Source: Macrostomum lignano
Lineage: Eukaryota
Direction: 5' to 3'
DNA: 64,000 nt
Assembly: GCA_002269645.1 (NCBI GenBank)
Contig: NIVC01001527.1
Span: 8,141 to 72,140, forward strand
Part shown: positions 1 to 52,192 of the stretch, one piece after another
Layout: the number at the start of each line of letters is the position of its first letter
How positions within the stretch are numbered: the stretch's first letter is position 1
Notes under the pieces: model-generated
Told to the model about the DNA's origin: nothing
The model's input: the letters and a program-made list of their open reading frames with translations, nothing else
Databases searched by the model: none
Translations under genes and position numbers: made by a program

Positions 1-4
1 AACT

Positions 5-742
5 ATGAAAATTCCTTTCACAGACACCTTACTGACTTTTATGACCAAGAACCAAGAGAAAATCTCCGAGAAGCAGCTAAAGAACTACAGAAATCTAGTG
101 ACTTTTTCTCTTGTTAGAGATATAGAAATACTAAAGGTCCCAGAAGTTCTGAAACACATGTACGATAGCGGTGTCAACCTGACTAAATTCAAAAAGTACA
201 AGCACTTTAAACAATGGTTCGATTTGCCAGATCAGGCGGAAGTCATAAAATATCTAGAACAACAACAGCAACAACAACCACAACCACAGCAGCAGCAACA
301 TTTCACAGAAGTACTCAGGCAACTGGAAAATGCAGATCCGACTCAAGTAGCTAAATATAAAAATGATCACCCAGATGCCTGGCAACACTTAGAACAACAC
401 TCTCCAGATCGAATGAACAGAATCAAGCAAAGAGTTTTCACACCTCAACAAAGACAGGCACCACATGACAGTTCCATCTCTGAAAGTGAGCAGTCTTTTG
501 CATCACCTCCCCAGCAGCTACAAGCCCAACCAACTCCACAACCCCAAGACCAACCGCCCTCAACAGGAAAAGGAATTTCTGAAATCTACAAGCGAGTAGC
601 GGTTCTTCTAGGAGCAGCAAAGACCGGAATGAAAGATGAAAATAGAAAAGAATTTGTCAACATCCTGGACAAAATGATGGAAAAGAAGTATATTGACAAA
701 CGGGCGAGAGAGCTTCTGCTTTCGCGGTTCAACAAAAAATAA
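5..742 (+). CDS. Polinton accessory protein (Q/P-rich linker, helical C-terminal domain)
   Basis: 245-aa ORF. The C-terminus GKGISEIYKRVAVLLGAAKTGMKDENRKEFVNILDKMMEKKYI resembles, from recall, a helical domain recurrent in Polinton proteins. Not database-checked. Confidence 0.7.
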   Translation: MKIPFTDTLLTFMTKNQEKISEKQLKNYRNLVTFSLVRDIEILKVPEVLKHMYDSGVNLTKFKKYKHFKQWFDLPDQAEVIKYLEQQQQQQPQPQQQQHFTEVLRQLENADPTQVAKYKNDHPDAWQHLEQHSPDRMNRIKQRVFTPQQRQAPHDSSISESEQSFASPPQQLQAQPTPQPQDQPPSTGKGISEIYKRVAVLLGAAKTGMKDENRKEFVNILDKMMEKKYIDKRARELLLSRFNKK

Positions 743-758
743 TTTATTTCAAGTAAAA

Positions 759-1148
759 ATGCCGATTATTTTTGAGAAAGACGTGGACAAATACTATGAC
801 AAAGAGGAACTTAATCTCATTAAACGCGGATCTGGACTTTTCCCTGCAGGCCACTATCCAAGAAAAGAACGCTCTGGGAATGGCCTTGCCGATTTGATCG
901 CTCAGGGGGCCAAGATTTTTAAGGTCATTGGAGAGAACAAAGAGAACATCAAGAACGTTGCCGAAGCGGCTGGCAGTGTAGCCACAGCAGCCAAAAAGAT
1001 AAAGGATACTGTAACACCTAAACAAGAGATTCAGCCTCCACTGGCCCCGCTGGCTCCATTGGCCCCAAATCCAGACAGTGTGGACCCTGCAGTCTATGAG
1101 AAGATGAGGGCTAGCATTAAAAAAGGAAGTGGTTTCAAATTTGACTAA
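759..1148 (+). CDS. small Polinton protein, candidate virion core/cement precursor
   Basis: ATG at 759 in AAAAATG context, 129 aa. Contains three GxG motifs (KRGSG, RSGNG, KKGSG) and a PLAPLAPLAP segment. Confidence 0.7.
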   Translation: MPIIFEKDVDKYYDKEELNLIKRGSGLFPAGHYPRKERSGNGLADLIAQGAKIFKVIGENKENIKNVAEAAGSVATAAKKIKDTVTPKQEIQPPLAPLAPLAPNPDSVDPAVYEKMRASIKKGSGFKFD

Positions 1149-1174
1149 AGGGTACTTTCCGAGGGTACAAGACT

Positions 1175-1321
1175 AGTCCCGAAATGACACATCTAAGTCC
1201 CAAAATGACACATCTAAGTCCCGAAATGACACATCTAAGTCCCGAAATGACACAATTAAGTACCAAAATGACACATCTAAGTCCCAAAATGACACATCTA
1301 AGTCCCGAAATGACACATCTA
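1175..1321 (+). repeat. 7 x 21-bp tandem repeat (AGTCCCGAAATGACACATCTA)
   Basis: 147 bp = 7 units, directly upstream of the ATPase. Translates as MTHLSP(E/K) repeats in frame with the ATPase. Confidence 0.95.
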
Positions 1322-1360
1322 AATTATTTATTATTTAAATTTTTTTTTATCATAGAAAAA

Positions 1361-2161
1361 ATGGACTTTTCAAACGACTTCAATCCTCACTGGACGCGTA
1401 ATCAGATTAAGTTTTCTCATCACGAGTCAATTCCGAGTCACTTCAGATGCATTGTTGTTGGTTCATCAGGTTCAGGTAAAACATTCAGAGTCTTTAACAT
1501 GCTTCTTAGACCTGGCTTTATCGACTATGACACTCTGCACATCTACTCTCCCACACTGTATCAAGATGAGTATAAAATGTTGATTTCTGGATTGCAAAAC
1601 AAACTGCACAAAGAGGACATTATTGCATGTTTTAATAACCAAATGAGCCTTCCCAGTAACCCTGAAATTGTAGCTGCTGAATATGCAAAGCACCTCAAAG
1701 ACAATGAAAAATGGCAGAACATTAAAGTGTTCACCTATGGAGATCCACAGGCTGATCCAAAGACCAAACTTCTACCCCAACCAGATGAGCTAGAAAAGGG
1801 GAGAAAGCATTTGATCGTCTTTGATGATTGTATGACAGGCCCACAGAAGCAGATAGAAAACTATTTTACAAGAGGGCGACATAACAATTGCAATGTAATT
1901 TACATTGCACAGAATTGGTTCGAGCTCCCGAACAAAACAATTCGTGGGAACTGCAATCTGATTCTCCTGTTTCCAACCATTCCACAGGACAGGCTAAAAA
2001 GATTTTACAATGAGGTCATTGCGCCTGCCTATTTCATAAATCCAACAAAAAACTCAAGCAGAAAGATTTCACAAGAGGAATTCGTTAATCTTTGCTATGA
2101 CAAGTGGAATCAGCCTTACCAGTTTGTGATTATCAGCAAAGAAAAAAGAACTGTAATTTAA
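1361..2161 (+). CDS. A32/FtsK-like genome packaging ATPase
   Basis: Walker A GSSGSGKT, Walker B LIVFDD, and A32-type motif TRGRHNNCNVIYIAQ. The likely start is the ATG at 1361 (AAAAAATG). Confidence 0.93.
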   Translation: MDFSNDFNPHWTRNQIKFSHHESIPSHFRCIVVGSSGSGKTFRVFNMLLRPGFIDYDTLHIYSPTLYQDEYKMLISGLQNKLHKEDIIACFNNQMSLPSNPEIVAAEYAKHLKDNEKWQNIKVFTYGDPQADPKTKLLPQPDELEKGRKHLIVFDDCMTGPQKQIENYFTRGRHNNCNVIYIAQNWFELPNKTIRGNCNLILLFPTIPQDRLKRFYNEVIAPAYFINPTKNSSRKISQEEFVNLCYDKWNQPYQFVIISKEKRTVI

Positions 2162-2177
2162 AATTTGCTATTAAAAG

Positions 2178-2996
2178 ATGTCGATAAACTTTGCAGGTGA
2201 ATCCATTTCTGGCAACAGCGCTCTTACATCAGCTCAGATATCCATCCTTGACAGGCGATATATCAACAGCGACGAAAAGATCCCAGAGATCAAACTGAAT
2301 AAAAACAGACTGAAAGCCCTAGAGCGCTCCATGCACCAGTTGCAAATAAACATGGAAGATCTCAGGCTTAAAGTAGCTAGGCAGAAGTTTGAAAGTGATA
2401 AGCTTTATGCGCCGTTGTTAAACGCAACTAATGAACTAAGGTCAGAAATAACTTCGATAGTCTCGCTAATCAACGGCTTGAGATCATCAGTTAATCTTCT
2501 GGGAAATTCCACTGATAGACGGATGCGTATTCTCGAAGGAGGAGTTTTCACAAACACAGCTAAAGTAAATAATTTAGAAGAGTTCATGAACCAGTCAACA
2601 GCGTTGCATGATAGAATTAAAGAAAACGTCGCAACCAACACAGGTAAAGTCAATACTTTAGAAGAGTTCATGACTCAGTCAACATCGTTGCATGATCGAA
2701 TCAAAGAAAGACTTGATGCATTAGAGAGAAACGATGTATCACACAGTAGCTATCTAAACGGAATGTATAGCTCTTGGGGTAAAATAATAAGGAGGCTTGA
2801 TCGTCTGGAGAGAACACTCAATCTTCGTGATATTGCTATTGATGAAGCAGAATCTGCTGCTCGTCCGGTCATGTCTACAGATCGAGTAGAAGGAGCTCTG
2901 GACCCCGACGGAGTAATCCGGCACGCTCTCAAACGTCAGCCGCCCAGCCGCTGCCTGCTGGACTCGCGATCCTCCGGCGTCAAGAGAGCCGCCTAG
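2178..2996 (+). CDS. coiled-coil protein of the Polinton (possible fibre/stalk)
   Basis: 272-aa ORF with heptad-rich character and an internal 28-aa (84-bp) duplication at 2550-2717. Function is inference only. Confidence 0.65.
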   Translation: MSINFAGESISGNSALTSAQISILDRRYINSDEKIPEIKLNKNRLKALERSMHQLQINMEDLRLKVARQKFESDKLYAPLLNATNELRSEITSIVSLINGLRSSVNLLGNSTDRRMRILEGGVFTNTAKVNNLEEFMNQSTALHDRIKENVATNTGKVNTLEEFMTQSTSLHDRIKERLDALERNDVSHSSYLNGMYSSWGKIIRRLDRLERTLNLRDIAIDEAESAARPVMSTDRVEGALDPDGVIRHALKRQPPSRCLLDSRSSGVKRAA

Positions 2997-3088
2997 ACAA
3001 CCGGCGGTGCAGATGGAATTATCAAAAAGAAAACAGATCTTTCAACCGGATAGTTTTATAATTTTTTTTATTTTTTCTAGAGAAAAAA

Positions 3089-3838
3089 ATGGCCCAACAA
3101 AATTCTCTATACGATCAGTCTCAATATGCTGAACCTAAAATACCGACAGCACCAAACTCAATGGCACCGAATTCGAACACACAAAACCTGGCACCGAATC
3201 TGAATGCATCGAATCTGAATGCACCTCAATATTCAGACCGACTTTACCCCCTCATTACTTGTAACTCTCAGCAGTTTCGACTGGTGGAGATTCAAAAAAT
3301 GCGCGATGATCTTGAAAAAAATATTTTCCACAACACAAAGAAAATTAAGCGCTATGACAACCACTGTAAATTTTTCGACTACAGCAATATGATTCTAGGA
3401 TCTGTGTCTGTTCTATCTGGATCTGCTGCAGCTGTCTCAGTGTTGCCAGCCATCACAGCCCCAATCGCAATTCCACTTGGTTCAGTAGGTGCTGCATGTG
3501 GACTTATTTCAGCAATTACTGGAGCAGTAGCGCGAAACAGGCGAAAAAAACTAAAGCAGCTACAGGAGAAGCAAGTAAAAGAGAAAGGGGTGCACACATC
3601 AATCATAGGGTACATTTCAAGGGCAATCGAGGATAAGTTCATTTCAGAGGATGAGTTCAAAACCATTCAGGATCTTTATGAACAATCAATTCGAATGAAC
3701 TTGAACATGGTCGGTACTGATGACATGAGTCAGCTGAAAAATGAACTCGAGAAAGTTTTTCAACATTATGTGGAAAGAAAGTCGGCGAAAAATTCGGCAA
3801 GAAATTCGGCAAGAAGGACGACGAGGAATGCACAATGA
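3089..3838 (+). CDS. Polinton membrane protein with hydrophobic hairpin and N-terminal PTAP/LYPL motifs
   Basis: 249 aa. FRLVEI helix, then a ~47-aa hydrophobic Gly/Ala-rich segment (MILGSVSV...AITGAV), a basic stretch RNRRKKLK and ISEDEF. From recall this architecture recurs in animal Polintons. Confidence 0.75.
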   Translation: MAQQNSLYDQSQYAEPKIPTAPNSMAPNSNTQNLAPNLNASNLNAPQYSDRLYPLITCNSQQFRLVEIQKMRDDLEKNIFHNTKKIKRYDNHCKFFDYSNMILGSVSVLSGSAAAVSVLPAITAPIAIPLGSVGAACGLISAITGAVARNRRKKLKQLQEKQVKEKGVHTSIIGYISRAIEDKFISEDEFKTIQDLYEQSIRMNLNMVGTDDMSQLKNELEKVFQHYVERKSAKNSARNSARRTTRNAQ

Positions 3839-3841
3839 ACC

Positions 3842-4236
3842 CTATGAAACACAGCCAAGAATAATTTCCTTGTAGGTCTTTCGTGTTTTGGTCATTGCAT
3901 ACAAAACAGTCATGCACAGCTCACCGCAAATATCACTGCTAAGACCTTGGAGAATAAAGTCTGAGCGATAAATTTTTTTTTTTTCCCTTCATATAATTTC
4001 TTAGCTCTTCTGGTACTCCGTCCCATAGCTATCGAAGTAATAACACTTGTGCTTGCGATCGGGATCAATCACCCAGCAAACCCAATGAGATCCTGGCTTA
4101 TCGGTGGTGTCAAAGTTCATGATGCCGCATTCCTTTCTTAGAGGAAAATCGGCAGAGTGTCCCTCATAAATATTCCTCTAAAGTTTGGGATTTCCAGTTC
4201 GTTAGCCAAATCTTCGAGAAAGTTATTTGTTGTCAT
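3842..4236 (-). pseudogene. adenain-like (Ulp1/adenoviral C5-type) cysteine protease, three apparent frameshifts
   Basis: Not in the ORF track. Manual reconstruction: MTTNNFLEDLANELEIPNFRGIFMRDTLP/FPLRKECGIMNFDTTDKPGSHWVCWVIDPDRKHKCYYFDSYG/GVPEELRNYMKGKKK/IYRSDFILQGLSSDICGELCMTVLY...VS*. His (GSHW), Asp (YFDS), Gln and Cys (ICG) are present. Indels at ~4148, ~4023 and the T12 run at 3973-3984. Confidence 0.88.
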
Positions 4237-4309
4237 TTTTTATGAGGTTTATTAAACTTTATCTTAAACCTAAACCCAACCTCCACCTCCTAAACCCAAC
4301 CTCCTAAGC

Positions 4310-7300
4310 TTAATCTCCACCTCCTAAACCTAACCTCCAGTGCCCGAACGGTAGACTGTTGATATTGTCATCAAAAATGAATCTCTTGTTATCTGCACCT
4401 GACAGTCCAATCTTCTTTTGCCGAATTGTGTGAATAATATGGTTTTTGGATTGTAGCTTTGAGAACTCATGTGATGTCTTTTTGTTGCAATTCAAGGCGT
4501 CTCTGTATTCAGCTTCATTAATTTCCTTCCTAACGACGCGTTTCGGAATTCCCTTTGATTTTTTATTGGGTCTGACGACTCACATTTTACAAAATAGGAC
4601 TTTGCTCTCAACCCAATGAATTCAGTGATTATGTCACCAGCAATCTCGTCCTTCATTTTCCCAATCACTTTCTTGTTAGTGGCGTCAAACACTTGATCGC
4701 CATTCTGTGTCCTGAAAGATTCATCATACTCAGACAAGTCAAACAAATCTTTTTGCTGCAGCATGTCCTGATAAATATCTTCTGTTTGAATTCCATAATA
4801 AAACTGTCTGTGTCAGTGTACAAGAGTTTCATTTTATCCTTGTACTGCTGCTTCATGTCATAGAAGAACTGGTACATCAGACGTTTTGATTCGTCGAGAA
4901 CAGTGACACCTGTATAGATCGGCTTGCGCAGCGTCACCTTGGTTTTGTAAAATATGATCACACCTAAGTAGCTATTAAAGATATGGAGTTCTTTGAATGT
5001 TGGCTTTGACATATTTGCCTGAATAACAGCAGGCTCTGATGAGGTAACAAGTTTCAGGTTTGTTCTTTTCCGCTCATTCTCAAGAGTCTTGCCATAGACA
5101 GAGTTGTTGGCCAACTTAAAGAGGTTCTTGTCAAAGTCGTTGGTTGCTTTGGTCCTAAACTGGGTGTTCTTATCAATGTAGGGTTTCATCCACGCTTCCT
5201 CTGTAAATGTAAGAGCCCGTGAACTATGGTGACCCTGCAACCAAGTGAGATAAAATACTGAAGCAGTTTGTAATGGATTTTGTAACGTGTCTTGTTGTTT
5301 AGATTCTGTGTTAGTTTCTCTGTATGTTCTTTTTCTGTTCCTGACAGGTGCCAAGTTCCATTATTATCATTGGGAGTTTCGATTATTTTCGGGCACTTGA
5401 TGTTCTCTGGGAAGGGTGGAAAGTCAGAGAAATAGTCGTGAAGCTCTGGTGGAATGTAAACATCAACTTCATAAATGGCAGCCAATGAAAAGTCCCACTT
5501 TAGTTCTGATGAGGGTAGCCATCGAAAATCTGGAAGATCTTGACTCATCGCCCACCCGTAGAGATTATTAGCGTCCAAGTAAGTAATGTAGTTTGAGGGC
5601 TGCTCCTTATTGTAAGATTCAATGTAGGGATTGTTTGCTTTTGCATACCTGTTAACGCAAATTGAGATTCCCCCTCGCTTTGACGATTCGACAAAATTGT
5701 ACATGTCAATGTCTGTAAGAAGTTCAATGTACCAATCTGGATCTTGATCCCATTTCATTTTAAGCAAAGATTCCCAGCTAGTGGCAGGCAGAGACACATA
5801 ATGTGCTGGATCGAGGCCATATGCTGTGTACCAGGTGTATCTGAAGGTTTCAAACACATCGGCCAGCAGAAACACATCTGTGAAGAGGTAAAGCAGGTGA
5901 TACTGGAAGAAGTTTTGACAATTAAAGTAATTATAGACATGCTTCGCGTGCTCATAGTCTTTGTCAGAGATTCCAGAGTCTGTTAGCTTTGAAAAGAACT
6001 TTTCTTGTGGTGGCAAACCTTCTTCAAATACGTGATACCCAGTAATATTTTCATAGGGGTAGAAGCCTTTGGTTCTCAGGAGTTTAAATGATTCATCACT
6101 GTTGTTAATTTTACTTGCAAACATCTTTGTATATGTACATTGTTCATCTTTTAGATTCTTGCTTAGTTCGTCTAGACTGGCAGCTAGAAATTGATATGAA
6201 TCCTTCAGTCTTATTTTACCTGTACCCGAATTATCCTGTTTAATATCAACACACTTAAACTTCTCCTTGTTCTCTGCGATGCAGTCAAGGTGTATGTCTG
6301 GAATCATGCCGATTTTTTCAACTATTAAATGCATGTCATAGTTCTTTGCGTTGTGACAAAATATCGTTAGATCATGAATGTTCGATTTTAGCTTTAGATT
6401 ACAGGTGTTATGCGCTGCACCTCTAAATTTCCCAGTAAAGTGGCAGTGGTCCCTAACGGTGGGGTTTTTAATATTAGTGCAAGTTAAATGTTTCCTGCAG
6501 ATGTGGCAATGAGTTGCTGATAGGAAATTGCTTTCATCCTCCTCAGTCATCATTATTGGAACAGGTTGAAGGGTGCTAATCACTCTTTGCAACTCTAACA
6601 TTCTGGCAATAAACAGCTCCACACACTGCTCTCCAAAGAAATAATTATACTCAACAAGTCCTTTTGTAGTAATAAAGGCATATGCTACTGAATTGGGGAC
6701 ATGTTTTTGAGTTTGAGTTTGTTTTTGAGTTGGAGTTTGTTTTTGTGTTTCCGGCATGATTGAGCATTCGAAATCAGCATATACAACAAATGGGAGCTTC
6801 TCCATCTTGTGATAGTTCTTAAACCGAAGATACTTCTCTTCAGCTGAAGGAAGAGAGCAGTTGGTCGGGTGATCCTCGCATGATAATTCATGCTCTGCTA
6901 GTTTTTCAAAGCGTTCAGGTCCACTGTAATGCTTAAGGCACAAGCGGCAGATGGCAACAGCCTCGTGATGATTATTCAATTGCTTGTGAATGAGTCTTGA
7001 AAGATCTTTAATCCAAACATAGTGAGCCTCCTCTAGTAAATTACCAATCACTAGAAGATCCACTTCAATCCGCCTTTTCCCCTCAGGATCTAAAACGTCT
7101 TTGCTACATCTGACCGGTTGAACTTTCTCAGTTTTTTCACTCCACTCAAAGACTGTGATTCTAATTTTGTTATTAAACACCTCTTCTAGTTTTGGGATCT
7201 GAGAGATCGCCAAGCCTCCTTTGTCAAACCTGATTCCCTTCTTTTCGCATTCGATGAGATAGTAGTTGAAATAATTTTGATAATTTGAGGTTCTTTCGGG

Positions 7301-8164
7301 GTGGTGAGGGACACTATTATGAAAAAGTGCAGAAAGAACTGCCCATAGAGCACAGCAATTGTCTTTATTTTTAACATTTATGCAAGCTTTTTTACCGGCT
7401 AGCTTATGCGGGAGCTCTATATAAGAGGAGGCTTTAAGTGGGTCATATTTCATGACCATGACAGTCGCTCTTTGAATCCCTCCCACGACCCATCCGGAAC
7501 CTCTGGATGTAAACGCTTCAATTTTCTTAGTGACATCTTGAAGGAAAGGATCCAGTGTGTCAGTAGGGGTGAATGGTTTTGCCTTTGTTGTCATGTAATA
7601 CTCGAGATGCTCAGTGGGTTTCGCAGGCATATAAAACGCAATCTTGAATGATATCTGTAGTTTAAAGGTCTTGCGTGTTTTGAGTGTGTGATCAACAACT
7701 GATTGGATGCTGTCTTTATAGTCGTAGATGTTTGCGGTGGTACCGTTGGTGCCGTTTATTGGGATTGTGTGCTCTATGTAATGTTCTGTAAACTTCCTCT
7801 GTGCAAAATTAATCTCTTCAATGGCAAGCTCCAACTCTTTTAAATGGATTAATTGCTCTAATTTCTCTTGTTCCTGCTTATTTTGTGGGTACTTTGCTTT
7901 TTCACCAGTGAGAGTTTCGTATTTGTTAACTAAGTTGCGACTCCTCTCTTGGTGTTCCTTTGCAGAATTTTTTATAGGCGCATACTGGTTGGATTCTAAT
8001 TGATTGATGATTTCCAACTGTTTTTCATAGCTTCCCAGGTGACCAGGGTCTGTGTTGAACCTTTGTTTGCATGCTTCTCTTAGTAAATTACTTTTGTCTT
8101 GAAATGAGACGCCTTTTGAAAAATATCTGTTGACTAAATCTTTTGCTGGATTAGCTTTTGGCAT
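4310..8164 (-). CDS. polB: protein-primed family B DNA polymerase (pPolB) with EndoVII-like insert; three 1-nt deletions
   Basis: Exonuclease motifs [13 protein letters not shown] and [10 protein letters not shown]; polymerase motifs [20 protein letters not shown] and YTDTDS; RDHCH...AHNTCN Zn/HNH insert. Track ORFs 5186-8164, 4665-5354, 4492-4764 and 4310-4495 join into one protein when one base is added at each of ~5219, ~4786 and ~4560. Confidence 0.95.
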
Positions 8165-8288
8165 TTTTTTCTATAAAATAAAAAAAAATTTTGAGGGTGA
8201 CCACCCTGATAGAAAAGTTGAACTGTTTCTACATCCTATAAGTAGTGTTAGGTTTATGAAGCTGGATAAAGTGGGGTTTTAAACCTCA

Positions 8289-8747
8289 TCACATGCGCAT
8301 TATTGTAAACCCAGCATTGTGCAGTGTCATGATAGCTTTGACAATGTCAGACTTGCTTATAGAATTTTCATTCTCACAATCATCACGATCCGGGCAGCCC
8401 TCAGGGCAGCCCTCTCCTGCCTTAATTGTTATACCTTTGTCTCTTGCAATCTTTTGCAATTCTAGCTGGTGGGCTCTATCATTCCCAGCTTTAACAGCAG
8501 TTGCTACACCTCCAGCTACACCACCTGCGGCACTCACAGCGCCTGCAATGATCGGAATAAGAGCTGCTAATGGTAGGATTCCTCCTGACTTTTCATCTGT
8601 GATGCTGTGTCTTTGTTCATTACATTGAACTATTTGCTGCACGGGATCGACTTTTACTTTGGCACCTTTTATTGATATAAGACCTGGTTTCTTTGATTCA
8701 ATGATTTTATTGAGTTTATTGATGGTTCTGGTTTCAATCTTTGTCAT
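8289..8747 (-). CDS. adenovirus pX (pre-mu)-like membrane-active/core protein
   Basis: GGILPLAALIPIIAGAVSAAGGVA closely matches the adenovirus pX C-terminal motif as I recall it (GGILPLLIPLIAAAIGAVPGIA). Confidence 0.75.
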   Translation of the reverse strand: MTKIETRTINKLNKIIESKKPGLISIKGAKVKVDPVQQIVQCNEQRHSITDEKSGGILPLAALIPIIAGAVSAAGGVAGGVATAVKAGNDRAHQLELQKIARDKGITIKAGEGCPEGCPDRDDCENENSISKSDIVKAIMTLHNAGFTIMRM

Positions 8748-8763
8748 TTTTTATTTTAATATT

Positions 8764-9469
8764 TTAATTAATTTCCGTGTCAGCTGGTATTACTAGGAGT
8801 TCAGCTCTAGTGAATGACCGTGTGGGGGATTTAGGGTTAAAGGCCTGAGATAAAAAGTAATAGTCACCGGAGTCGGAGGTAAAATGTCTGTCTATTTTAT
8901 GTACATCAAGGCTGAAGTATGGATCTGTAGCTCTTCTTTTGGTGTCTTTCTCTAGCTCTCCATGTAGATATAAAAAGCGTAGAAACTCAGAGTTTGTCAG
9001 TATGTATGGTGATTCAACTCCTGGAAGCTTAGGGTAGTTCGAGGTGTCTGTTCTAAGAGATGACTTAAGTTCGACAGTGTCTTGTTTAATTGCATGGGAT
9101 GGTTTCAATCCAGTCATGCGTGTGACTTCATTGTTCAGTTGCTCTATAACAGTGGGGAGCCGGTCTGTCCACTTGGTATAGTATTGGCCACTTTTTAGTT
9201 TCAGCTCTTCAGCTGTCTGCTTAGTGAATAGCCTCTTGGCTAGAGTTAGATTGAATCTCTCAACGTACGCTTGGTCTCTGTGCAAGTTTGTTCTGCCATA
9301 GCGAATCTCTGTGTCATGCTTATGTAGAAGTGATTTCACTGCACCCATGAATTCTTTGCCAGGATCAGTCATAAAGGTTTCAGGGTAGCTAAGGGGTGAG
9401 TTTTTATAAATATCTTGGAGGGCGGCTGCAACTGCTTCTGACTTCTTCGTCTTGAGTGGGCGAGCTTCC
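8764..9469 (-). CDS. int: retroviral-type (rve) integrase, 3' part
   Basis: The frame is open upstream of the track ORF up to the insertion: (K)EARPLKTKKSEAVAAALQDIYKNSPLSYPETFMTDPGKEF...YVERFNLTL. Second Asp and Glu of the DDE triad are present. Confidence 0.93.
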
Positions 9470-10560
9470 TTCCCACTAAAAACGGGTTATCGGATTGACA
9501 TCGGAATCTGGCCGGATTTTAGCAGGGCAATCGGAATCTGGTGGAACTAGATTTGCAAGCAAAAAAACGATGAAAAATGTGCTCCAATGACATCCAAAAA
9601 CTACACAAAGTATTTCCTGGCTTTCTTTGCTTCTCGGAAGCACCCCGGAAACATACCGGAATATGAGGCTCCATATTCCGACCGGAATTTACACTGCACC
9701 CGAGCCGTCACTTTCCGACAATAATTTTGAACGCAAGCTTCGCAAAAATATCAGCATACTTATCAACTAGTATGATGACTGTCCACTTTGAAGAAAAAAC
9801 TCTTTTAGACGGGAATTCTGCGCCCTCGCAATTTGCAAGAAGAACAGCTAGCAAGCTTTGTTTTACGCGATCAAGTGTTGAAGCTATTGACCAGTTTAAT
9901 TTGCACACTTCCATTTTCACTAATTTGCGCTCGCTTGGAACATCAGCTCTTTTGAACACAGCTCCTTTAGCCAACACAGGACAGTGAGACCACAACTTTG
10001 AACTCTCTGCAACTTCATCTGTGGTTACACGCAAATACTATACTAGTATGCTACTCCTTTCGTTCATTTAGTGCATTTCTTTAGTCTCCTATTATCTTGT
10101 ATGCTTGAATTTTTTACTGGCGGACTATATAATCGCTAATTTCAGTAATAAAATATATTATTATTGTTTATTTGTGATAACAGCTAGCCAAAACTATTAT
10201 ACTATACCTAAAAAGAACAATTTGGTATACTGCAATACTGCATAGTGAGTTTTGACCATAGTGGCACTTGCAGAAGCTTATTAATATTTGAGTACAGTAT
10301 ATGATAGGCACCAATTGTCCAGCTATACATAATATATACTGACATTGTACTATACTCATAGCCAGTTTCAATTCAGACCATCGCAAAGTAGTAAACAAGG
10401 GCCAATTCTATAAATTCTATCTAGTGCTAGTCCTAGATTTCTCATATTGAAAGAGACTGCAAATTAAAATAATTGACTACATTGTGTACTAAAAACATAT
10501 AAGGCAAAAGCTAGTTCTAATAATAAATAAGTATTGTCATTTATTGATTAATTTGATTTA

Positions 10561-12471
10561 ATGGCTTTGCCAAGTCGTGCATCAAATAGACAGGTAGCCA
10601 GGGAAATGCAAGAAATACTACAAGAGCTTCCGACGATTGGGGCTACAAATATTGAGGCTAGGCTAGATCTAGAAAATGTGATGGGACAAAATGAAGATAC
10701 AAAGAGCAATGCTGAGCCTGAAGAGACATTCTTTGATGCAGTGGGTCCAATGCCAATGGACTTTGATAGCCAAATGCATGCTCTTTTTGAGGAAGAAATG
10801 GATGAAGAAGTTGAAGAACAAGATGACTCTCTTGGCTATAATAGACCTCCGCCACTTACTTTGGTGCAAGAGTTACTATTGTTTTACATAACATTCAATA
10901 TTACTAGTGCTGCCATGAATTACCTACTTCGGCTTTTGGCTCGTTTCTTCACTGACATACCCACTTCTGTCTACATGCTTAAGAGGCAGTGTCCAAGCAC
11001 AGAGATCACGAGGTTCAATGTCAATAATGGTCATGTTGCCTTTCTCTCCATTGTGGACAATTTGAAATTTTTACTTGATTCCAAAATCCTTACAATTCCA
11101 TCTGGAATTACAAACTTCTTTGTTTCCTTAAGGGTAAATGTTGATGGTCTTCCTTTATTCAAGTCATCTAGAATCAATCTTTGGCCTATATTGATGCTAG
11201 TAAATAATTGTTTTAGACCTGTGCCATTTGGCCTTTTTTGTGGCATTGGAAAGCCTGACCTACATGTCTTCTTAGAAAGGTTTTGTTCTGAAATTGCAGG
11301 TCTACAGAATGGTTTTGACTATAATATGAAAAGAATTTTTATTAAGTCAATTGTCTTTATCTGTGACACACCTGCTAGAAACTTTATTCAATGTTTGAAA
11401 GGTCATTCCAGTTATCTTGGCTGTAGTTGGTGTCGTCAAGTAGGAAATTACACAGGTGACAGAATTTGTTTTTCTAATACCATTGCAGAGGCTCGAACAA
11501 ATCAAGATTATGAACAAGGGCGTGAAAATAACCAACTTGGTATTTCTCCACTAGCCAGGATTGTTCCAATGTATTCCAATTTTGTACCCGACCCAATGCA
11601 TATTGTCTACTTAGGGGTTGTAAAGAAGTTGCTCAAATTTTACTTCCTTGGAGCAAAGCACATTCGACTTGCTTGCAAGTTGTCATCCCAATTAAAAGAG
11701 GAAATAAATAGAAAAATAATGTATATTAAGGAATTTGTTCCTTCAGATTTTCAAAGACGGCTTCGCACTTTTGCTGACATTGAATACTTTAAAGCAACGG
11801 AATTCCGCCAATGTCTTTTGTACTTTGGTCCGTTCCTTTTTAAGAATACCTTGCCAAAGGTCTACTTTAATCATTATCTATTATTGCATTGGTCAATTTC
11901 AGTCCTTAATTCACCTGAGTACTGTGAAATTTATTTTGATGCTGCTGAGGCTTGTTTGAAAAAGTTTGTTGCTGAGGCACCAAGCCTATATTACAACAGT
12001 GTAGTTTCTTATAATTGGCATGCTCTGTTGCACCTTCCTGAGTTTGTGCAAATGTATGGCCCACTTGACACGTTTTCAGCTTTCCCTTTTGAAAACTACT
12101 TGCAATTGATCAAGAAGAGAATTCGTTGTACCAATCATGTTTTTGCCCAATCTGTCAACCAGTTGTTGAATGTGAGATTTTTATATTCTAATGACAAGTT
12201 GGGTGACATTGGTTTTACTAATAAGAGTCCTAATAACTGTGCTATTGTTGATGGAAAGGTTGTCATTGTCACCAATTTAAATGATGGTCTTATTTCAGGC
12301 CAGGTTCTCACATTTGATAGAAGCCTTTATTCCTATCCATATCCATCAAAATCAATTGGCATAGGCTACTATAAGCATTCAAAGACATTTGTATCCAACT
12401 TGCAACCTTCTAAGAAGGCCATTCTAATTCCCTTTGGCGGAGACTATCTGGTCATTCCTTGCATCAAGTAA
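10561..12471 (+). CDS. EnSpm/CACTA-type DDE transposase
   Basis: Intact 636 aa. Motifs VNVDGLPLFKSS..LWPIL, FICDTPAR, KGHSSYLGCSWC, DPMHIVYLG, KATEFRQ, HALLHLP..YGPL...SAFPFEN. Confidence 0.92.
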   Translation: MALPSRASNRQVAREMQEILQELPTIGATNIEARLDLENVMGQNEDTKSNAEPEETFFDAVGPMPMDFDSQMHALFEEEMDEEVEEQDDSLGYNRPPPLTLVQELLLFYITFNITSAAMNYLLRLLARFFTDIPTSVYMLKRQCPSTEITRFNVNNGHVAFLSIVDNLKFLLDSKILTIPSGITNFFVSLRVNVDGLPLFKSSRINLWPILMLVNNCFRPVPFGLFCGIGKPDLHVFLERFCSEIAGLQNGFDYNMKRIFIKSIVFICDTPARNFIQCLKGHSSYLGCSWCRQVGNYTGDRICFSNTIAEARTNQDYEQGRENNQLGISPLARIVPMYSNFVPDPMHIVYLGVVKKLLKFYFLGAKHIRLACKLSSQLKEEINRKIMYIKEFVPSDFQRRLRTFADIEYFKATEFRQCLLYFGPFLFKNTLPKVYFNHYLLLHWSISVLNSPEYCEIYFDAAEACLKKFVAEAPSLYYNSVVSYNWHALLHLPEFVQMYGPLDTFSAFPFENYLQLIKKRIRCTNHVFAQSVNQLLNVRFLYSNDKLGDIGFTNKSPNNCAIVDGKVVIVTNLNDGLISGQVLTFDRSLYSYPYPSKSIGIGYYKHSKTFVSNLQPSKKAILIPFGGDYLVIPCIK

Positions 12472-13172
12472 ATCAAGTTATTTGCCTGAAGTCCATCGTC
12501 CATAATTGTGTCTTGCCTAAGTTGTTTACAAATGTAATTGTGTATACAGTCAGCAAATATAATTTAATTAGGTCTAGAATAAAAAAATATATAATTCCAT
12601 ATATATTATATAATATTGAAGTAGTATAGCCATTATAGCCATTAACAAACTAAAGCATTTGTTCGGATCATGGTATGAAATAAGATGATCATTATTATTT
12701 TTATTATTATTATTAATTAATTTTATTACAAAAAACAATTATTATTGTTTTGTATAATTTCTATGCTTTATTATAACCTTCCTAAGTGCTTGCAAATATG
12801 AGTACGTATTATTTAAGTAATGTGTCCTTCAATGTGAATGTCCTAGTCAGACTATTTATGATTTTTGTGGCAGAATTCTAGTGTAAATGTATTTTGACAA
12901 GTTGTCTACTAGTAAGTTAGCAAGTAGCAATAGGCCCCTATGAACAATTCAATAAACATTTTTTGTGTATCCTCTAAATTTGTAACTCACTTGTTCCAAT
13001 GGAATAATTACATGTTATGTGCCATATTATGCTGTAAAAACTTTAGTTACTGCTTGGCCAACATTACACCACAATGAGTAAATAGTCCTTCTTAGTACAT
13101 GCAGTGTCTTGTGCAGTTGCTAAATCATTAAATAATAAAACTTTAGTTCAGTAATCTTGTTGCAGTGACTCA

Positions 13173-15683
13173 ATGAAGTTTATTGTGTATTTTACCTCTG
13201 ACTATGAAGTAATAGAAGCTGATGAGGAAGATTGCCTTCTTGGCTCTTTTACTAAGTGGACTATTGAGCAATGGAGGCAAGTGGACAAACTTGAAGAAGT
13301 TCATATTCAGGTAATATATAATGACAAGTTGGAAGATTGCATTGTTTTGCAAGTTGTTCCACATGCCTGTGACACCAGTGACACTGTTGCCATGCTACGA
13401 GCTGTGGTCAAAGAGAAGCACTATCGTCCAAGCAAGCTACTAAAGATTCTGCCAGATCGTGTTCGATCCAACAAAAGACAGACATTTCCTCCTATGAAGA
13501 ATCTTGAGACAGACAATGATGCAACAGATATTGATGCTGTAAGTATAATGTAAAATAATATTTAATTTAATATTTAGTATACAACTAAGGTCTGCCACGT
13601 GCGTTAATATAAAATATAAAATAATATAATTGTAGGTTGCTGATGCAGCCAGCCATGGACAAGCCAACCGGGGTCCCACACAGAGAAGTGAATCATTGTC
13701 TGGGTCTTCTGGTGTTGTTTGCCTCCCTCCACTGCCAACTCTGCAAGCTTCGGGAATTGCAGAAGTACGTGCTTACATTTGTGTCTATTTAAAAATGTCA
13801 AGCATTTATAGTCTTTATGTATTCATGCATTTGGAGTACAGTATGCTTATTAATTTCAAATTATTGCACTTGGCAGTTTGCCAGACATATTACAAAATGA
13901 TTGAGACAGTTTTAATAGTTTGGATTTTATTCTTTTCTTTAATTTCTCTAATCTAACACTGTCTTCACCTCACCCCAATGCCAGGCTAGCGTGACGGCTT
14001 GTTGTCACACATCACATTGTTATGTTTATATCTATACACCTCTGTTATGTCTGCATCATCTCATTCAATGCGTGTATGGTTACTGTTGAGTATATCATTT
14101 CTCCTACTATGTTACAGATTAACGTGCTGAGAAAAAAATTATCTATTCTAATCATTTCTTTACCAACCCAGGCCTACGACGGCACAATGGCGCAGAGCAC
14201 TGTCAGGAAACTTCAGAACCGCACCTCCATGGCACCTCCACCAGAACCGCAGTCGATCGACAGCCCAGCCTTTGAGCGACTGCACCCTCAAGCAGCTCTC
14301 AATTCGTCTGGAAGCTCGACGCCTACTCGACACCCGTCTAGGCAGTTTTCGTGCACTCCAACTTCAGCCCCAAGAGCCAGCTTCTCGCGCGAACAGCTGC
14401 GACAGCCTGCGCAGGTAATTTGTAAAACTCGTTTCATGAAGTCTTGCAACAGTTTTTTTCAGAACTTGCCACGGTTTCTAACGAAAATTTAATCCACAGT
14501 TTTCAGCTCTGCCTCAGCTGGAAACGCAAGCCAGAAGCCAGGTTGAGGCTTGTGGGTACACGTGGGGATCTGTTGAAGGTAATGGAGTTATTGTTATTGA
14601 CGCTGAGATAGCAGTAGTTGACAACAGCCGCAAAATGTAACTGGTGACCAGCGCACACTCGTTGCTTGAACAGCTAGGTGGATGAAATCGACAGCGTCTA
14701 GCTTGGAACTGGCACGTAAATTGAAGTTAATTTACTATGCAACTTTCAACTCATTATTCAGGGCTCTACTGTCTGCAGCTCTTGAGCATTCGCGAACTCA
14801 TGAAGCTAAAGGCCACGATTGAGTCGTCCAGTCTCCGGGGAGCTGCTGCGGCACCCACGCTCGAAATTCCATTCGGGCTTCCTGTCGCAAATGAGGCCGA
14901 CCTCAACAGTGCAGTCGAGAAGATTTCTGCCAGTGCGGAGGCCAAGACTGCGCTGGTTAGTTAATATCTTATGAGCATTTCTCTTACTATTAAACTTCCA
15001 CCATGCGTTCGGAACTTCGGTACTGTAGACTCGGGGAAATGGTCCAGACGCTTTCATGTGTGAATTTTAGACTTCGTTCATTCAGAAAAAGTGCCTGGGC
15101 CCTTCTGTGACTCAGTCTGTTCGCTATGCGATGAACGAGCTTCTGGCGCGAGACTTCCAGCAGCGCTTCAATCGCACTGGCGGCAAGGATGCCCGAGGCC
15201 GTGGCCAACAAGAGAACTCCAAGATGTCTTTCGACAAGTGCTTTGGAGGGATTGTGAAGGGTAGGTTATGCTTTACTGTCGCATATGTACCAATTACCAG
15301 AGTTGATTCTTAATAGTGATATCAATAGTGATATACTGTCTGATACAACGTACTGATAAATGTACGGGGTGGGTACTGCCATAACCATACGTATTCATGC
15401 CGTAATTCATACATGTATTTCTCTCAGGTCAACAGTTGTGGACTTGACAACCTGCTTATGTTGTGATTGTCAAATTTCAGACGCGTTGGGCTCTTCATTT
15501 ACGCTGCACGACATCAATAAGGCAATCGAACGGTTCTTCGATGGCGTCCGGAAGCGTCGAAGCCACGAGGGATCAGCTGAATCGGACGTGGCCGGCGGGC
15601 ATGGCGCCCCCACTCCAAGCAGGCGTCGCTCGACGATGCGAGTGCAACGCATATCCGACAGCACTGACGAGGAAAATATGTAA
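13173..15683 (+). CDS. spliced accessory gene of the CMC element, DUF4806-like C-terminus
   Basis: GT-AG exons ~13173-13538, 13636-13764, 14172-14414, ~14500-14580 (uncertain), ~14762-14955, ~15086-15260 and ~15480-15683. The C-terminus LPVANEADL...SVRYAMNELL...FNRTG...KMSF...INKAIERFFDGVRKR fits my recall of DUF4806. Confidence 0.72.
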
Positions 15684-16555
15684 CTTGGTGGCATAGTAAA
15701 AAATTGTCCCTTTCGTCGAAACTTCGCGCTAACTTAAATTTTAACTGCTCCGAGACCGAAATGCTAGTGTAGTACAACTGGGTTTGAAGGCCGCGAATTT
15801 GAACAGTTTCACTACAGCAATTTAACGTCTTCAGTTCACTCGCAGCGCAGCGCCTTACAATTGTTCACTCGATTGCAGCGCGCTTTTCAAACTGGTGCGA
15901 TTATATTTTAATTAGACAACGATTAAAATAATTTATAATTAATATTTGCTTTATTTTCAAGGGTCAAAAAAGTAGAAATTAATAACATAATAATGCTATT
16001 TGCAATTGCTATAGTTACTATATAGCAACAATTAAATATTTAGTGCAATTTTAACAGAACATTTTCAGCCGCACTACACTAGGCCTAATCAAATTGACCT
16101 AACAACTATAAAATACTTGTCGAACTGTCTCCAACCTGCACCCTATTAGTGACTGCTTTGGTGGCCCACCACGCGTTGCTGCAATGTTCTATTTTGTAAA
16201 CACTAAATAAACACTTATTATTCCTTTCCATCTGCTGCCATTGAGCAATTTTGTATTTGATGTAAAATGATGCACACCCGGTCTTTGTGTCATTGAATTT
16301 TCAGACGGGATCGGGCTGTCTAAATGTACATGCGTGACTGCGTGTACACTGATCTTCGGCTACATTGTAGCACATGCATGTTTGTACTCGCTTTGTGCTT
16401 CGTCATTTATATCAGCTCGGAAAGTGAAACGAAAAGCTCTGGATGAGTCCGATCGTCAAATCCGATCAGAATCCGAATGGATTTCCCGGGACAAATTTCC
16501 ACTCGGTTTCCGAGCTGCATTTCCGATCGGAATCCGACCAAGCTTTTTTAGTGGG

Positions 16556-16845
16556 TTATATCTGGAAGCAATGTCAATAATTGTAAGAGCATACTTGTAG
16601 CCTGAGTCGTTGGGGAGAAACAAAAGATCTGCTTGGTGCGCTTCATTAGGTTTATAGATGCTAAAGTGAGGTCTTGTAAATTTTACTGGTGGGAAATAGA
16701 CTTGAAAGACAGCCTGCTTAGAGAGCCACTTTTCTACTTTTGCTTTTGGTTCCTTACTTAGTTCTGCGAGTTTGGTGACTGCATTTTTTCCTACAAAGAA
16801 TCCTTTGTCGCTGTAGTAGAGTTTTTTAAGTTTCTGATCTGTCAT
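16556..16845 (-). CDS. int: retroviral-type integrase, 5' part
   Basis: MTDQKLKKLYY...HQADLLFLP...YALTIIDIASRY. Removing the insertion and one TT copy gives TAT AAG GAA GCT (Y-K-E-A) and a continuous 331-aa ORF. Confidence 0.93.
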
Positions 16846-16875: not shown

Positions 16876-17403
16876 ATGCAACGCTCTGGTGGTAAGTTAG
16901 ATTCACATGGACTGATAGAAAAGCTTCCTCATCCAAACAAAGGCTGGACACTTCCCGGCTATAAATATTGCGGGCCTTTGAATCCACTTGAAATACAGTT
17001 AGATAAAAACAATAATCCACATCCTGGGCATGAGCCTGTGAACGAGCTAGACTCTGTCTGCATGTGGCACGATGTTAAATATAGAGATTTTCCTGAGGAG
17101 AAGAATCGCTGGGACAAAGAAATGCTTAAGAGACTAGACAATATAGGGGCTTCAAGCGGATTTCGTGAGTCGATTGCTCGGAAGCTAGTTAAAGCTGTTA
17201 TTTTTAGTAAGGCAAAGTTGGGTTTGGGGGTTCAAGGCGAAGGTGGGTGTTTGGGGAGAGAGGGCGGGTGTGCGGAAAGAGAGGGCGGAGGCTTGGAAGC
17301 AGGGTTTATTTTGTGTGCTCCTAACAAGAAATTGGGAAGACTGCTGAAAGAGCTGGGGGTAGAGAGAGCGCGCGTGGGGGGGGGAGAGAGATTTTCACTT
17401 TAA
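16876..17403 (+). CDS. parvovirus VP1u-like phospholipase A2 protein
   Basis: LPGYKYCGPLN Ca-binding loop, EPVNELDSVCMWHDVKY catalytic HDxxY helix and a downstream Asp (RWDKEM); Gly-rich tail. Confidence 0.88.
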   Translation: MQRSGGKLDSHGLIEKLPHPNKGWTLPGYKYCGPLNPLEIQLDKNNNPHPGHEPVNELDSVCMWHDVKYRDFPEEKNRWDKEMLKRLDNIGASSGFRESIARKLVKAVIFSKAKLGLGVQGEGGCLGREGGCAEREGGGLEAGFILCAPNKKLGRLLKELGVERARVGGGERFSL

Positions 17404-17508: not shown

Positions 17509-17745
17509 TTAACGCAATTGCTTAATGATTTCTGCAAAGTTATAGTAGCTGTCGTAATCTTTTACATAGGTTACTCCATACTTATGAAACCAGTGTCTTT
17601 GGAGAGCTAGATTAATATTAGGGACATTGATATGAACGTCGGGCCAATATTTTTTCATGTATTCGCTGCATTCTAGTTTGCATCGGTACTTGGATTTGTA
17701 CAATGGATGAGTATAATAGGAACCTGGAGAGACAACTGGAAACAT
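17509..17745 (-). CDS. small Tyr/His/Trp-rich hypothetical Polinton protein
   Basis: 78-aa ORF with the same poly-A ATG context as the other element genes. No family recognised. Confidence 0.5.
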   Translation of the reverse strand: MFPVVSPGSYYTHPLYKSKYRCKLECSEYMKKYWPDVHINVPNINLALQRHWFHKYGVTYVKDYDSYYNFAEIIKQLR

Positions 17746-17946
17746 TTTTTTATTAAGAATTTAATTTTTTTTCAAAGGGTAAGGACCCTGGGTTAGGGGG
17801 TTTAAAGTCTTTGGGATCAGGTTTCGCCGCTTCGGATTGAATGTGGGGAGAATGCAGATTATTTTCTGATTGTTTCTGGGTGGATGTTAGTGGATTATGT
17901 CAGTGTCAATGAGCATAACAGGTGTTAGTGGACACCTGTTATGCAC

Positions 17947-18202
17947 TGATTCTGTCAGGGATAATATGGATGGATTTAATACGATTATGTTCGAAGTTTT
18001 CGGAGCAAGTGCGACCCCTCCACTTTTTCATGATTCTGTCGGGGATAATATGGATGGATTTAATGGGATTATGGAGGACGTTTTGTGAGCGAGTGCGACC
18101 CCCTTTTTTTTCTGATTCTGTCAGGGATAATATGGATGGATTTAGGTGGATTATGGAGGACGTGAAAAATTTTGTCCCAGAAGCCCCCTCATGCCTTCTA
18201 CT
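17947..18202. repeat. three ~83-bp direct repeats in the presumed right terminal inverted repeat of the Polinton
   Basis: TGATTCTGTC(A/G)GGGATAATATGGATGGATTT starts at 17947, 18031 and 18113; the region ends in CTTCTACT. Confidence 0.7.
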
Positions 18203-18588
18203 CAAGGATGTGAAAGCAAACTGCTTAATCACAAGGATAAATTTTGAATTAAAGGAGGAAGGAAAGATTCCCCGAGTTGTAATCCAATATTGATTTGGCA
18301 TATGATAGTTATTAATTAGGCAATATTGATTATCTGTAAATTTTGTGTACAGTAAAACAAAGGTTTCTGAGGTATTTTTCATTTTTCGTGAAATCTTTGT
18401 AAATATAAAGAATTTTACAATTATTAAAACATTCCAGACTTCTAATTAAAATTAAAACACTTGCTATTAAATTTTTTTATCAGAATCAGCTGATTATTTA
18501 TATTAATATAAAACTCACGTAGAGGTCAAATACTTTTTCAACTATACCTGTACACCTGTTTTTCGTTGTCAATGGGTGCACGAATTAA

Positions 18589-50507: not shown

Positions 50508-52192
50508 TTATCTACGACTGAAAATCAGCCGATAATCTCCGGGCACTCGCAGTGATCCCATGTGTCCCCTGAGGATGTCGTCCTTCTTTGCCGCACTCTC
50601 CGGCTCCGGCCGCACCCGGTACCGCTGCATGATGGCCGTGAAGAACAGGAAAATCTCCATTCGCGCCAGAGACTCGCCAACGCAAGAGCGCCGACCAATC
50701 AGGAACGGGATGAGGTACGGACTGCTCCGGTAGCGACCTTTGTTGTCGAGAAAGTGCTCAGGGTAGAACTCGTTCGGTCTCTCCCAGTACTCGGCTCGGT
50801 GGTGGACGCCGTAAACCAGTGGGATGATGATCGCATCGCTCGGGATTCGGTAGCCGTGGAAGGTTGCGTCTTCCACTGAGCGATGGAAAACTCCGATGGC
50901 AGCCAGCGAGGCTTTTCTGTAGGTCTCGTCGATGACAGCGCTGGTGTAGTGCAGTTCTGTCCTGTCCTGCATCCGTGGACGCCTCGATTGACCGACGACG
51001 GAGTCGAGCTCGTTCTGGACTCGGTCCTGCACCTCCGGATAGAAGGCCATGTAGAGCAGCAGCCACTCCATCGATCGGGCGGTCGTGTCAGTGCCGGCCA
51101 GGTAGAACTCGAAGCACACTCGGATGAGCTGGAACTCCTTGAACGTCTCAAAGTCGCCAGCCTTCTCAGCCTTGCGCTTCTCCTGTTGTAAAATTTACGA
51201 AATGGTTTAGCACTAATTGGTTTACTTTTATACTAGTGCTGGTCTTCGGACCAAATTCTAAATTCTTCCAGCGGTCTCACCTGGATGTACGCATCGCACA
51301 GGCAGGTGGGCTGCACATCGGACCCAGCCGGCATCGCCGCCTCCCGCAGTCGGATCTGCTGGCGAAAGAACTCGTTCAGGTATTCGACATCGCGAAACAC
51401 CCGCGTAGACATCGGTATGATGTCCAGCAGCTTCTCGGCGGCCGGGAACAGAAAGCAGGCGGTCTCGGAGATGCCCGACTCCAGCGTGGCCGCGATCAGG
51501 CTGGTCACCTTCTTGAAGTCGGGATCGTCGCGGTGAAACCGCCTGCCAAGCGTCATCTCGGTGATGACGGAATTCACGGCCAGCAGAAATGTGTCCAGAG
51601 TTTTCACCGGCTGCGCAGCCTCCGCTGCCTCGTCCAGCTGCTGCAGCAGCGGCTCCAGCTGGTCCTCGATCATGCCAACCGCCTTGGAGCCGGAGAACCC
51701 GATCTCACGCAGGGTCCTCAAACTCAGTCGTCTCTGATGGCACCAGACTTTGCCTTCGACTAGAAATATGCCACAGTTCCTGGTCATCTTCTCAAACAGG
51801 CGCAGTCTTGGCCTGCCCGCAAACACCGGGTCGTCCAGCATCTCCTTCATCAGCGGATAGGAGTTCACTACCACAAACAGTCGGCCGCCCAGATAGAACG
51901 AGCACAAGTCGCCGTACTTCTGGCATTCCTTCTGCATCGTCAGGTGCAGGCACAGGGCGTCGGCCCAGGGCAGTCGCCCCAGCAGCGGCACCCCGACAGG
52001 CCCGGGCGGCAGGTCGCGAGCTCGCCTCCAGCTGCAGTAGGCTGCGTAGGCGGCGGCGGCGGCTGCCACGGCTACCATCGCCGTAGCTGCCGAGCACATT
52101 GTCGAACTGCTGGACGTCGAACTCGAAGCCAAGCCGGTGACCGCCAGCGTCCAGTGCAGCCAGTCGGTGAACAGTTGGCGATGCGGTTGCAT
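50508..52192 (-). CDS. cytochrome P450, CYP2 clan (paralog 1, two exons)
   Basis: Exons 52192-51281 and 51182-50508 (98-nt GT-AG intron). Motifs PPGP, WxxxR, AGTDTT, ETYR, PEHF and the heme motif FLIGRRSCVG. The start could instead be the Met at 52099. Confidence 0.94.

Follow-up and report, generated by a model that had tools for sequence, protein, structure and literature searches.

Polintons are widespread in animal genomes and carry genes between species. Why should the gene for a predicted membrane protein in a Polinton of Macrostomum lignano carry, in its N-terminal tail, P(T/S)AP and YPxnL, the short signals by which HIV-type viruses grip the membrane-cutting machinery of the cell through TSG101 and ALIX, respectively? 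The gene lies in a 64,000-nt stretch of the genome (contig NIVC01001527.1, positions 8,141 to 72,140 of the forward strand), which we call the window and whose positions are used below unless another sequence is named. An earlier note had proposed that the tail recruits ESCRT through PTAP and LYPL, in a lineage assumed to be non-enveloped. The body of that proposal is partly supported, as the motifs are conserved, enriched and restricted to the tail, while two of its details, the label given to the ALIX motif and the word ‘non-enveloped’, need revision.

The assumed Polinton context is borne out by the element itself, which spans about 22.5 kb from G000:C1527:3797, upstream of the window, to window position 18202. 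It is bounded by terminal inverted repeats of about 690 bp and 88% identity with AG..CT ends (AGTAG...CTACT), and a 6-bp target duplication, CAAGGA, flanks it on both sides. Its genes include a packaging ATPase and a double jelly-roll capsid, two of the features by which a Polinton/Maverick is recognized, the capsid match lying below cut-off, alongside pX-like and phospholipase A2 (PLA2) ORFs:

1184 to 2161, plus strand: A32-like packaging ATPase (PF04665, above cut-off)
5186 to 8164, minus strand: large ORF interpreted as the N-terminal portion of a protein-primed DNA polymerase (known motifs; in Pfam, a sub-cut-off Endonuclease_7 match only)
8289 to 8747, minus strand: ORF with an adenovirus pX-like domain (PF05829, above cut-off)
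16876 to 17403, plus strand: parvovirus-like phospholipase A2 (PF08398, E 6.9e-14)
17516 to 18208: right terminal inverted repeat, 88% identical to L031:3797-4485, ending in CTACT and followed by CAAGGA (sequence comparison)
L031:6348-7634 (G000:C1527, upstream of the window): 428-aa double jelly-roll-like capsid ORF (PF21738, E 1.5e-4, below cut-off)

The polymerase, which we take ORF 5186-8164 to be from its motifs, is broken in the window copy because its reading continues in separate ORFs at 4665-5189 and 4492-4764; it gives no DNA_pol_B_2 match, and the integrase is represented by broken ORFs with an rve match of E 0.035 only, whereas the loci of homologues contain clear rve and DNA_pol_B_2 matches. 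The integrase seems to be in two pieces (8764-9372 and 16456-16845, minus strand), parted by a nested segment several kb long at about 9400-16450, which holds a 636-aa ORF (10561-12471) with a weak DUF4218 match that is presumably transposase-like. The ATPase frame opens with a tandem 21-nt repeat encoding MTHLSPx units (1184-1322), and its true start may lie downstream. Immediately 5′ of the membrane-protein gene, a 272-aa coiled-coil ORF without a family match (2178-2996) carries an internal repeat (2550-2625 versus 2634-2709) and is possibly a fibre or partner protein. Contigs from runs that we guess to be RNA cover the Polinton evenly. Host cytochrome P450-like exons, recognized by eye at 50508-52192 and 60075-61932 (minus strand), are unrelated to the element.

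The membrane-protein gene is an open frame of 249 aa (3089-3838, plus strand; translation of 3089-3835), and its translation contains what had been described earlier, PTAP at aa 19-22 and LYPL at aa 52-55 in a tail that precedes a hairpin and a basic patch:

3089 to 3838, plus strand: ORF of 249 aa, member of a Polinton family with a late-domain tail and a hydrophobic helical hairpin (translation, homologues, AlphaFold2)
3143 to 3154, plus strand: PTAP, aa 19-22, candidate P(T/S)AP-type (TSG101 UEV) motif (28/28 parsed copies; family enrichment)
3188 to 3202, plus strand: LAPNL, aa 34-38, aligned by MAFFT with the YPxL of close relatives, inside a 27-nt repeat
3242 to 3256, plus strand: LYPLI, aa 52-56, candidate YPx[L/I]-type (ALIX V domain) motif (LYP[VL]I in 28/28 parsed copies; family enrichment)
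3380 to 3532, plus strand: uncharged hydrophobic hairpin, aa 98-148, with a modelled turn at aa 118-123 (no D/E/K/R; AlphaFold2)
3533 to 3556, plus strand: basic patch RNRRKKLK, aa 149-156, directly after the hairpin (translation)
3632 to 3658, plus strand: conserved helix-loop-helix turn, aa 182-190, with I185 and E189 near-invariant across the family (alignment, AlphaFold2)

In the translation, LYPL (nt 3242-3253) is followed by I56, and the stretch free of D, E, K and R (aa 98-148) is 51 aa long with a top sampled 19-residue Kyte-Doolittle mean of 1.81. AlphaFold2, run on a 66-sequence alignment, gave a mean pLDDT of 81.9 with modelled helices at aa 58-117, 124-182, 187-208 and 212-248, and a tail (aa 1-50) of low confidence (pLDDT about 50–59). 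The model of a distant member, P0190, has an identical layout, the predicted architecture being a disordered tail joined to a helical hairpin. We take the D-x-x-I-S-x-x-E-F loop between two helices (3632-3658) to be EF-hand-like, with putative calcium binding.

At least 150 matching copies of the window protein are present in the same genome (151 matches from the 150 scored of 616 candidates), and 28 copies among the 30 best loci could be parsed for the motifs. All 28 retain PTAP and LYP[VL]I, the second motif reading LYPVI in 27 and LYPLI in the window copy only; the motif is properly LYPxI, which corrects its original name LYPL. When 27 distinct copies were each paired with the window copy, the eight fixed motif codons showed no amino-acid-changing and three silent variants, and the remaining 48 tail codons showed 24 amino-acid-changing and seven silent variants plus deletions over 13 codons, a soft test, since picking the copies by how well they match the query favours intact motifs. 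LAPNL may be a decayed earlier copy of the second motif, as its aligned position within the 27-nt repeat, together with the intact motif adjoining the core, suggests motif turnover with retention.

The window protein belongs to a large family without a Pfam name, which has a disordered N-tail and a long helical hairpin with a hydrophobic tip. A profile search returned 4,367 clusters (50% identity) at E up to 0.001 and 1,218 at E up to 1e-10, and neither Pfam nor PHROGs holds a family above cut-off for the window protein or its family. Annotation of 43 ORFs in 6 of 80 metagenome loci revealed Polinton hallmarks in all six, namely a capsid, an A32 ATPase, an integrase, a polymerase B or a PLA2. 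A superfamily-1-like helicase gene adjoins the integrase in some family-bearing elements (L068:29-1669, L125:355-1260). IMG/VR scans with queries including P0190 returned no relative.

The best match in a PDB sequence search was AopB at E 0.025, with no specific solved fold; no solved structure reached E 0.001 in Foldseek, and VIA-align gave generic coiled coils, with a best Z of 11.3. Below cut-off, 16 of 66 members resemble an RTX N-terminal domain at E up to 0.05, and there are similar likenesses to SLATT 2TM and DUF677; SLATT_1 was found in 3/66 members (best E 0.002) and SLATT_5 in 1/66 (E 3.4e-6), with none in the window protein, and Foldseek matches to SLATT-annotated giant-virus proteins reached E 6e-4 at best and mostly lay above E 0.001. 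Leads in the ESM Atlas were unnamed clusters from viruses and molluscs, and a cluster that is 58% viral with Preplasmiviricota as its commonest phylum (12 members known). For both models, the best Foldseek matches were the uncharacterised invertebrate iridovirus proteins A0A5B8RH66, A0A068QKD3 and S6DF61, at E 5e-9 to 2e-6, 25–26% identity and TM 0.61–0.74 for P0190 and at E 2.5e-6 to 3.6e-5 for the window protein; judged by these models, the three are likely homologues of the Polinton family.

Late-domain motifs are a trait of this family and are confined to its tail. Enrichment of P[TS]AP and YPxL over shuffled tails, to which the earlier note had looked as a check, was found in three sets of homologues. 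Among the first 120 homologues, counted by eye, [LIM]YPx[LI] is present in 117, 109 of which belong to one clade (IYPNL), and P[ST]AP occurs in 9 of the 11 closest homologues versus 0/109 in that clade. In the 100 of 151 representatives that had a core start and a tail of at least 12 aa, [LIMVF]YPx[LI] was found in 59 tails (shuffle mean 0.29) and P[ST]AP in 28 (0.37); PPxY (4/100, shuffle mean 1.44) and YPx3[LI] (2/100, 1.36) were at about shuffle level and were likewise not enriched in the other sets. The 62 of the 151 representatives (50% identity) that are full length, with a median core identity of 33%, gave 48 and 27 for the YP motif and P[ST]AP, respectively, counts that may be inflated because the retrieval profile included the tail. 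Neither motif occurred outside the tail in these 62 (11,285 residues). Nine of the 62 are motif-less, seven of them forming one group on the tree.

Retrieval with the P0190 core and the tail unscored, intended to remove the tail bias, gave 109 hits, of which 17 tail-less ones were dropped and 92 kept. The YP motif [LIMVF]YPx[LI] is present in 82 of these (shuffle mean 0.37, maximum 3) and P[ST]AP in 47 (mean 0.48, maximum 3), with 0/92 carrying a motif outside the tail; once the proteins are clustered by core identity at 60%, the counts are 14/16 and 6/16. Metagenome loci found by core patterns contained a family ORF in 75 of 80 cases, of which 68 were usable: 60 have the YP motif, 20 have P[ST]AP and 17 have both, a combination seen 0 times in shuffles, and by cluster the two motifs are found in 5/7 and 4/7. 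As a control, 218 other ORFs of at least 150 aa in the same metagenome loci (59,893 residues) lacked the YP motif altogether and held P[ST]AP five times, never within the first 60 aa. Around the window gene itself (the upstream 8.3 kb and window 1-9500), 19 other frames of at least 100 aa gave one match only, LYPAL in the capsid frame. This YPxL match in the capsid-like ORF (L031:6348-7634) may be structural, and the hepatitis A capsid uses such motifs. Members with neither motif (P0126, P0127, P0131, P0134, P0157, P0192 and P0263, as well as L079:3624-4160, L083 and L106) comprise one clade and scattered short-tailed proteins, some of which may be broken copies and others true losses.

The order and spacing of the motifs vary across the family. 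With the relaxed patterns YPx[LIV] and [PA][ST]AP applied to 62 tails, the YP motif came first in 21, second in 12 and alone in 19, PSAP was alone in one and nine had neither; the YP motif lies 9 to 54 aa from the core. When the 62 cores are placed on a maximum-likelihood tree, its well-supported branches require no fewer than seven changes for ‘PSAP first’ and five for ‘YP first’; repeated changes of this kind are the behaviour of docking motifs. Consistent with late domains, the motifs match the consensus and are conserved yet position-independent within a segment predicted to be disordered. Y is preceded by I or L in 47/52, giving a family pattern of [IL]-Y-P-x-[LI], and the x residue is most often D (14/52), which yields YPD[LI] as in EIAV p9, whose motif is YPDL. 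The ALIX match had been called imperfect for want of a distal Leu, a description we abandon: LYPxI fits both the family pattern and YPXL/I, a published ALIX/PalA motif as titled in the reference list of PMC2171039.

Both partners are available in the host. The genome encodes a TSG101 UEV domain (three matches at E 6.7e-39; E 2e-42 to human) and ALIX V-domain exons in which the FY pocket segment NLKEGxKFY is retained. In the usual numbering, we take the host UEV to keep T58, Y68, N69, T92, M95, P139 and V141 and to carry His where the human domain has Y63, which belongs to the pocket, and the host ALIX to keep F676. Across the 62 full-length representatives, the N-terminal region has a top 11-residue hydropathy mean of 1.27 (58 of 62 rows, four left out), the median net charge is +3.5 before the hairpin and +4 after it, and the 19-residue hydropathy peak reaches at least 1.6 in 61/62. 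Both ends may be cytosolic, because there is no hydrophobic N-terminal stretch and basic residues flank the hairpin. Judging by its motifs, the tail very probably binds ESCRT.

As to what such binding is for, we lean, on sequence grounds, towards the hairpin protein being an adaptor that would recruit ALIX and TSG101 for the non-lytic exit of capsids wrapped in host membrane. The hairpin would insert from the cytosol with both ends inside, and the tail would bind ALIX-V and TSG101-UEV, bringing in ALIX and ESCRT-I. ESCRT-III would then cut the bud at the endosome or plasma membrane with capsids riding inside, linked to the adaptor by its C-terminal helices or by another viral protein, and the PLA2 and pX-like proteins of the Polinton would serve entry. 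Several observations speak against this reading: nothing found ties the protein to capsids, and ESCRT is also recruited for purposes other than exit; no more than about a third to half of members carry P[ST]AP; there is a motif-less clade, and motif-less members occur beside capsid genes (L079); His replaces human Y63 in the host UEV; the hairpin is rich in small residues and only moderately hydrophobic, like pore-forming hairpins; and no Maverick virions had been seen as of PMC8097293.

By analogy, with no homology found, the family would work most like NS3/NS3A of bluetongue virus. This non-enveloped virus, as described in PMC7409164, has in NS3/NS3A a small membrane protein that crosses the membrane with two segments, carries polybasic motifs and has late domains at its N terminus, among them PSAP, which serves TSG101; the protein drives non-lytic release. 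Whereas capsid binding is shown for NS3, for the Polinton adaptor we infer the link to the capsid. The two also differ in that the partner of PSAP in NS3 is PPRY (NEDD4) and its luminal loop is glycosylated and 21 aa long, whereas the Polinton family pairs P(T/S)AP with YPx[L/I], is not enriched in PPxY and has a modelled turn of about 6 aa. Retroviral Gag likewise joins both kinds of motif within one short, disordered stretch: PMC8402826 gives PTAP and LYPXnL for HIV-1 p6, YPXL for EIAV p9, and YPXnL with ALIX for quasi-enveloped hepatitis A. The retroviral motifs are on the capsid polyprotein, whereas those of the Polinton are on a separate membrane-hairpin protein of a double jelly-roll DNA element.

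It is possible, but unlikely, that the motifs recruit ESCRT for another purpose, sorting the protein or host membrane proteins bound to it into multivesicular bodies or exosomes, whether to turn them over, to remove receptors or to hand them to neighbouring cells. Syntenin and ARRDC1 are examples of ESCRT-dependent sorting. Such a role fits the motif statistics equally well, no capsid link was found, and likely homologues occur in invertebrate iridoviruses, where other proteins would bear late domains if tiger frog virus is a guide; a vertebrate iridovirus uses ESCRT via VP031L, VP065L and VP093L, as reported in PMC4880917. It fits less well with the position of the gene among capsid, ATPase, integrase and PLA2 genes in 6/6 annotated loci, or with the architecture, in which a tail bearing two motifs is joined to a small viral membrane protein of two helices, as in the known egress design of NS3.

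Only a slim chance attaches to the protein being a viroporin or pore-forming lysis factor whose ESCRT motifs tune or divert membrane repair at the plasma membrane, endosome or nuclear envelope. The small-residue hydrophobic hairpin on a long coiled coil, and the sub-cut-off likenesses to the RTX N-terminal domain, SLATT 2TM, DUF677 and AopB, would suit it; but all of these likenesses fall short of a curated cut-off, none of the solved folds stands out as a pore former, and recruited repair machinery would presumably oppose lysis. A pore would not exclude exit, because NS3 combines pore activity with late domains.

That the motifs serve other partners is very improbable. YPx[LI] also matches YxxPhi, and were it such a sorting signal for AP adaptors, with PxAP a generic proline-rich ligand, the protein would merely be a trafficked membrane protein, for which an optional P[ST]AP is what one might expect; however, YxxPhi needs neither Pro after Tyr nor a hydrophobic residue before it, whereas I or L precedes Y in 47/52, and a second ESCRT motif co-occurs in 17/68 loci against 0 in shuffles. 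Chance matches in a proline-rich low-complexity tail can be dismissed, since although P, A, S and T abound in the tails and PPxY and YPx3L stay near shuffle level, within-tail shuffles give at most 4 for either motif against 20 to 82 observed, and the shuffles in three homologue sets and the 218-ORF control refute it.

Among proteins described from the same kind of element, the closest candidates are the accessory, possibly membrane-active GasderminX, PLA2X, Cupiennin and Adintoc of adintoviruses, as set out in the main text of Starrett et al. (PMC8502044). GasderminX, according to that text, typically has a pX-like C-terminal domain, whereas in the Polintons studied here pX-like domains are on separate ORFs, for which reason the family is probably not GasderminX; Adeno_PX (E up to 0.1) had no match in P0001, P0190, P0208, P0231 or P0183, and gasdermin is absent among the Pfam, PDB-sequence and fold matches listed. 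The family may correspond to one of the Adintocs. The available part of PMC8097293 calls the Maverick genes pw and pz uncharacterised. In nematode Mavericks, the fusogen MFUS-1 had already been used to argue for enveloped particles (bioRxiv 10.1101/2022.07.12.499685, in the part available), and to speak of a lineage assumed to be non-enveloped was accordingly too strong. MFUS-1 is an entry protein of nematode elements, whereas the Polinton hairpin family would supply the exit step. Neither ‘ESCRT’ nor ‘late domain’ occurs in the main text of PMC8502044, as available, nor ESCRT or budding in the available text of the MFUS-1 preprint, and in the non-subscription literature searched we found no published link between Polintons, Mavericks or adintoviruses and ESCRT late domains.

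More broadly, we tentatively propose, as a conjecture held less firmly than the adaptor role itself, that the Polintons of animals are DNA viruses of a quasi-enveloped kind, whose particles exit in vesicles, and that they possess a dedicated and widespread ESCRT adaptor, which invertebrate iridoviruses share. Maverick virions were unobserved as of PMC8097293, going by the part of it available, and vesicle exit, if true, would explain the scarcity of free virions and would provide a route for transfer from soma to germline and between species. The conserved two-motif adaptor would be the first concrete exit mechanism for Polintons and points the hunt for particles to the extracellular-vesicle fraction, and it gives a testable function to more than 4,000 sequence clusters and to the uncharacterised iridovirus proteins.
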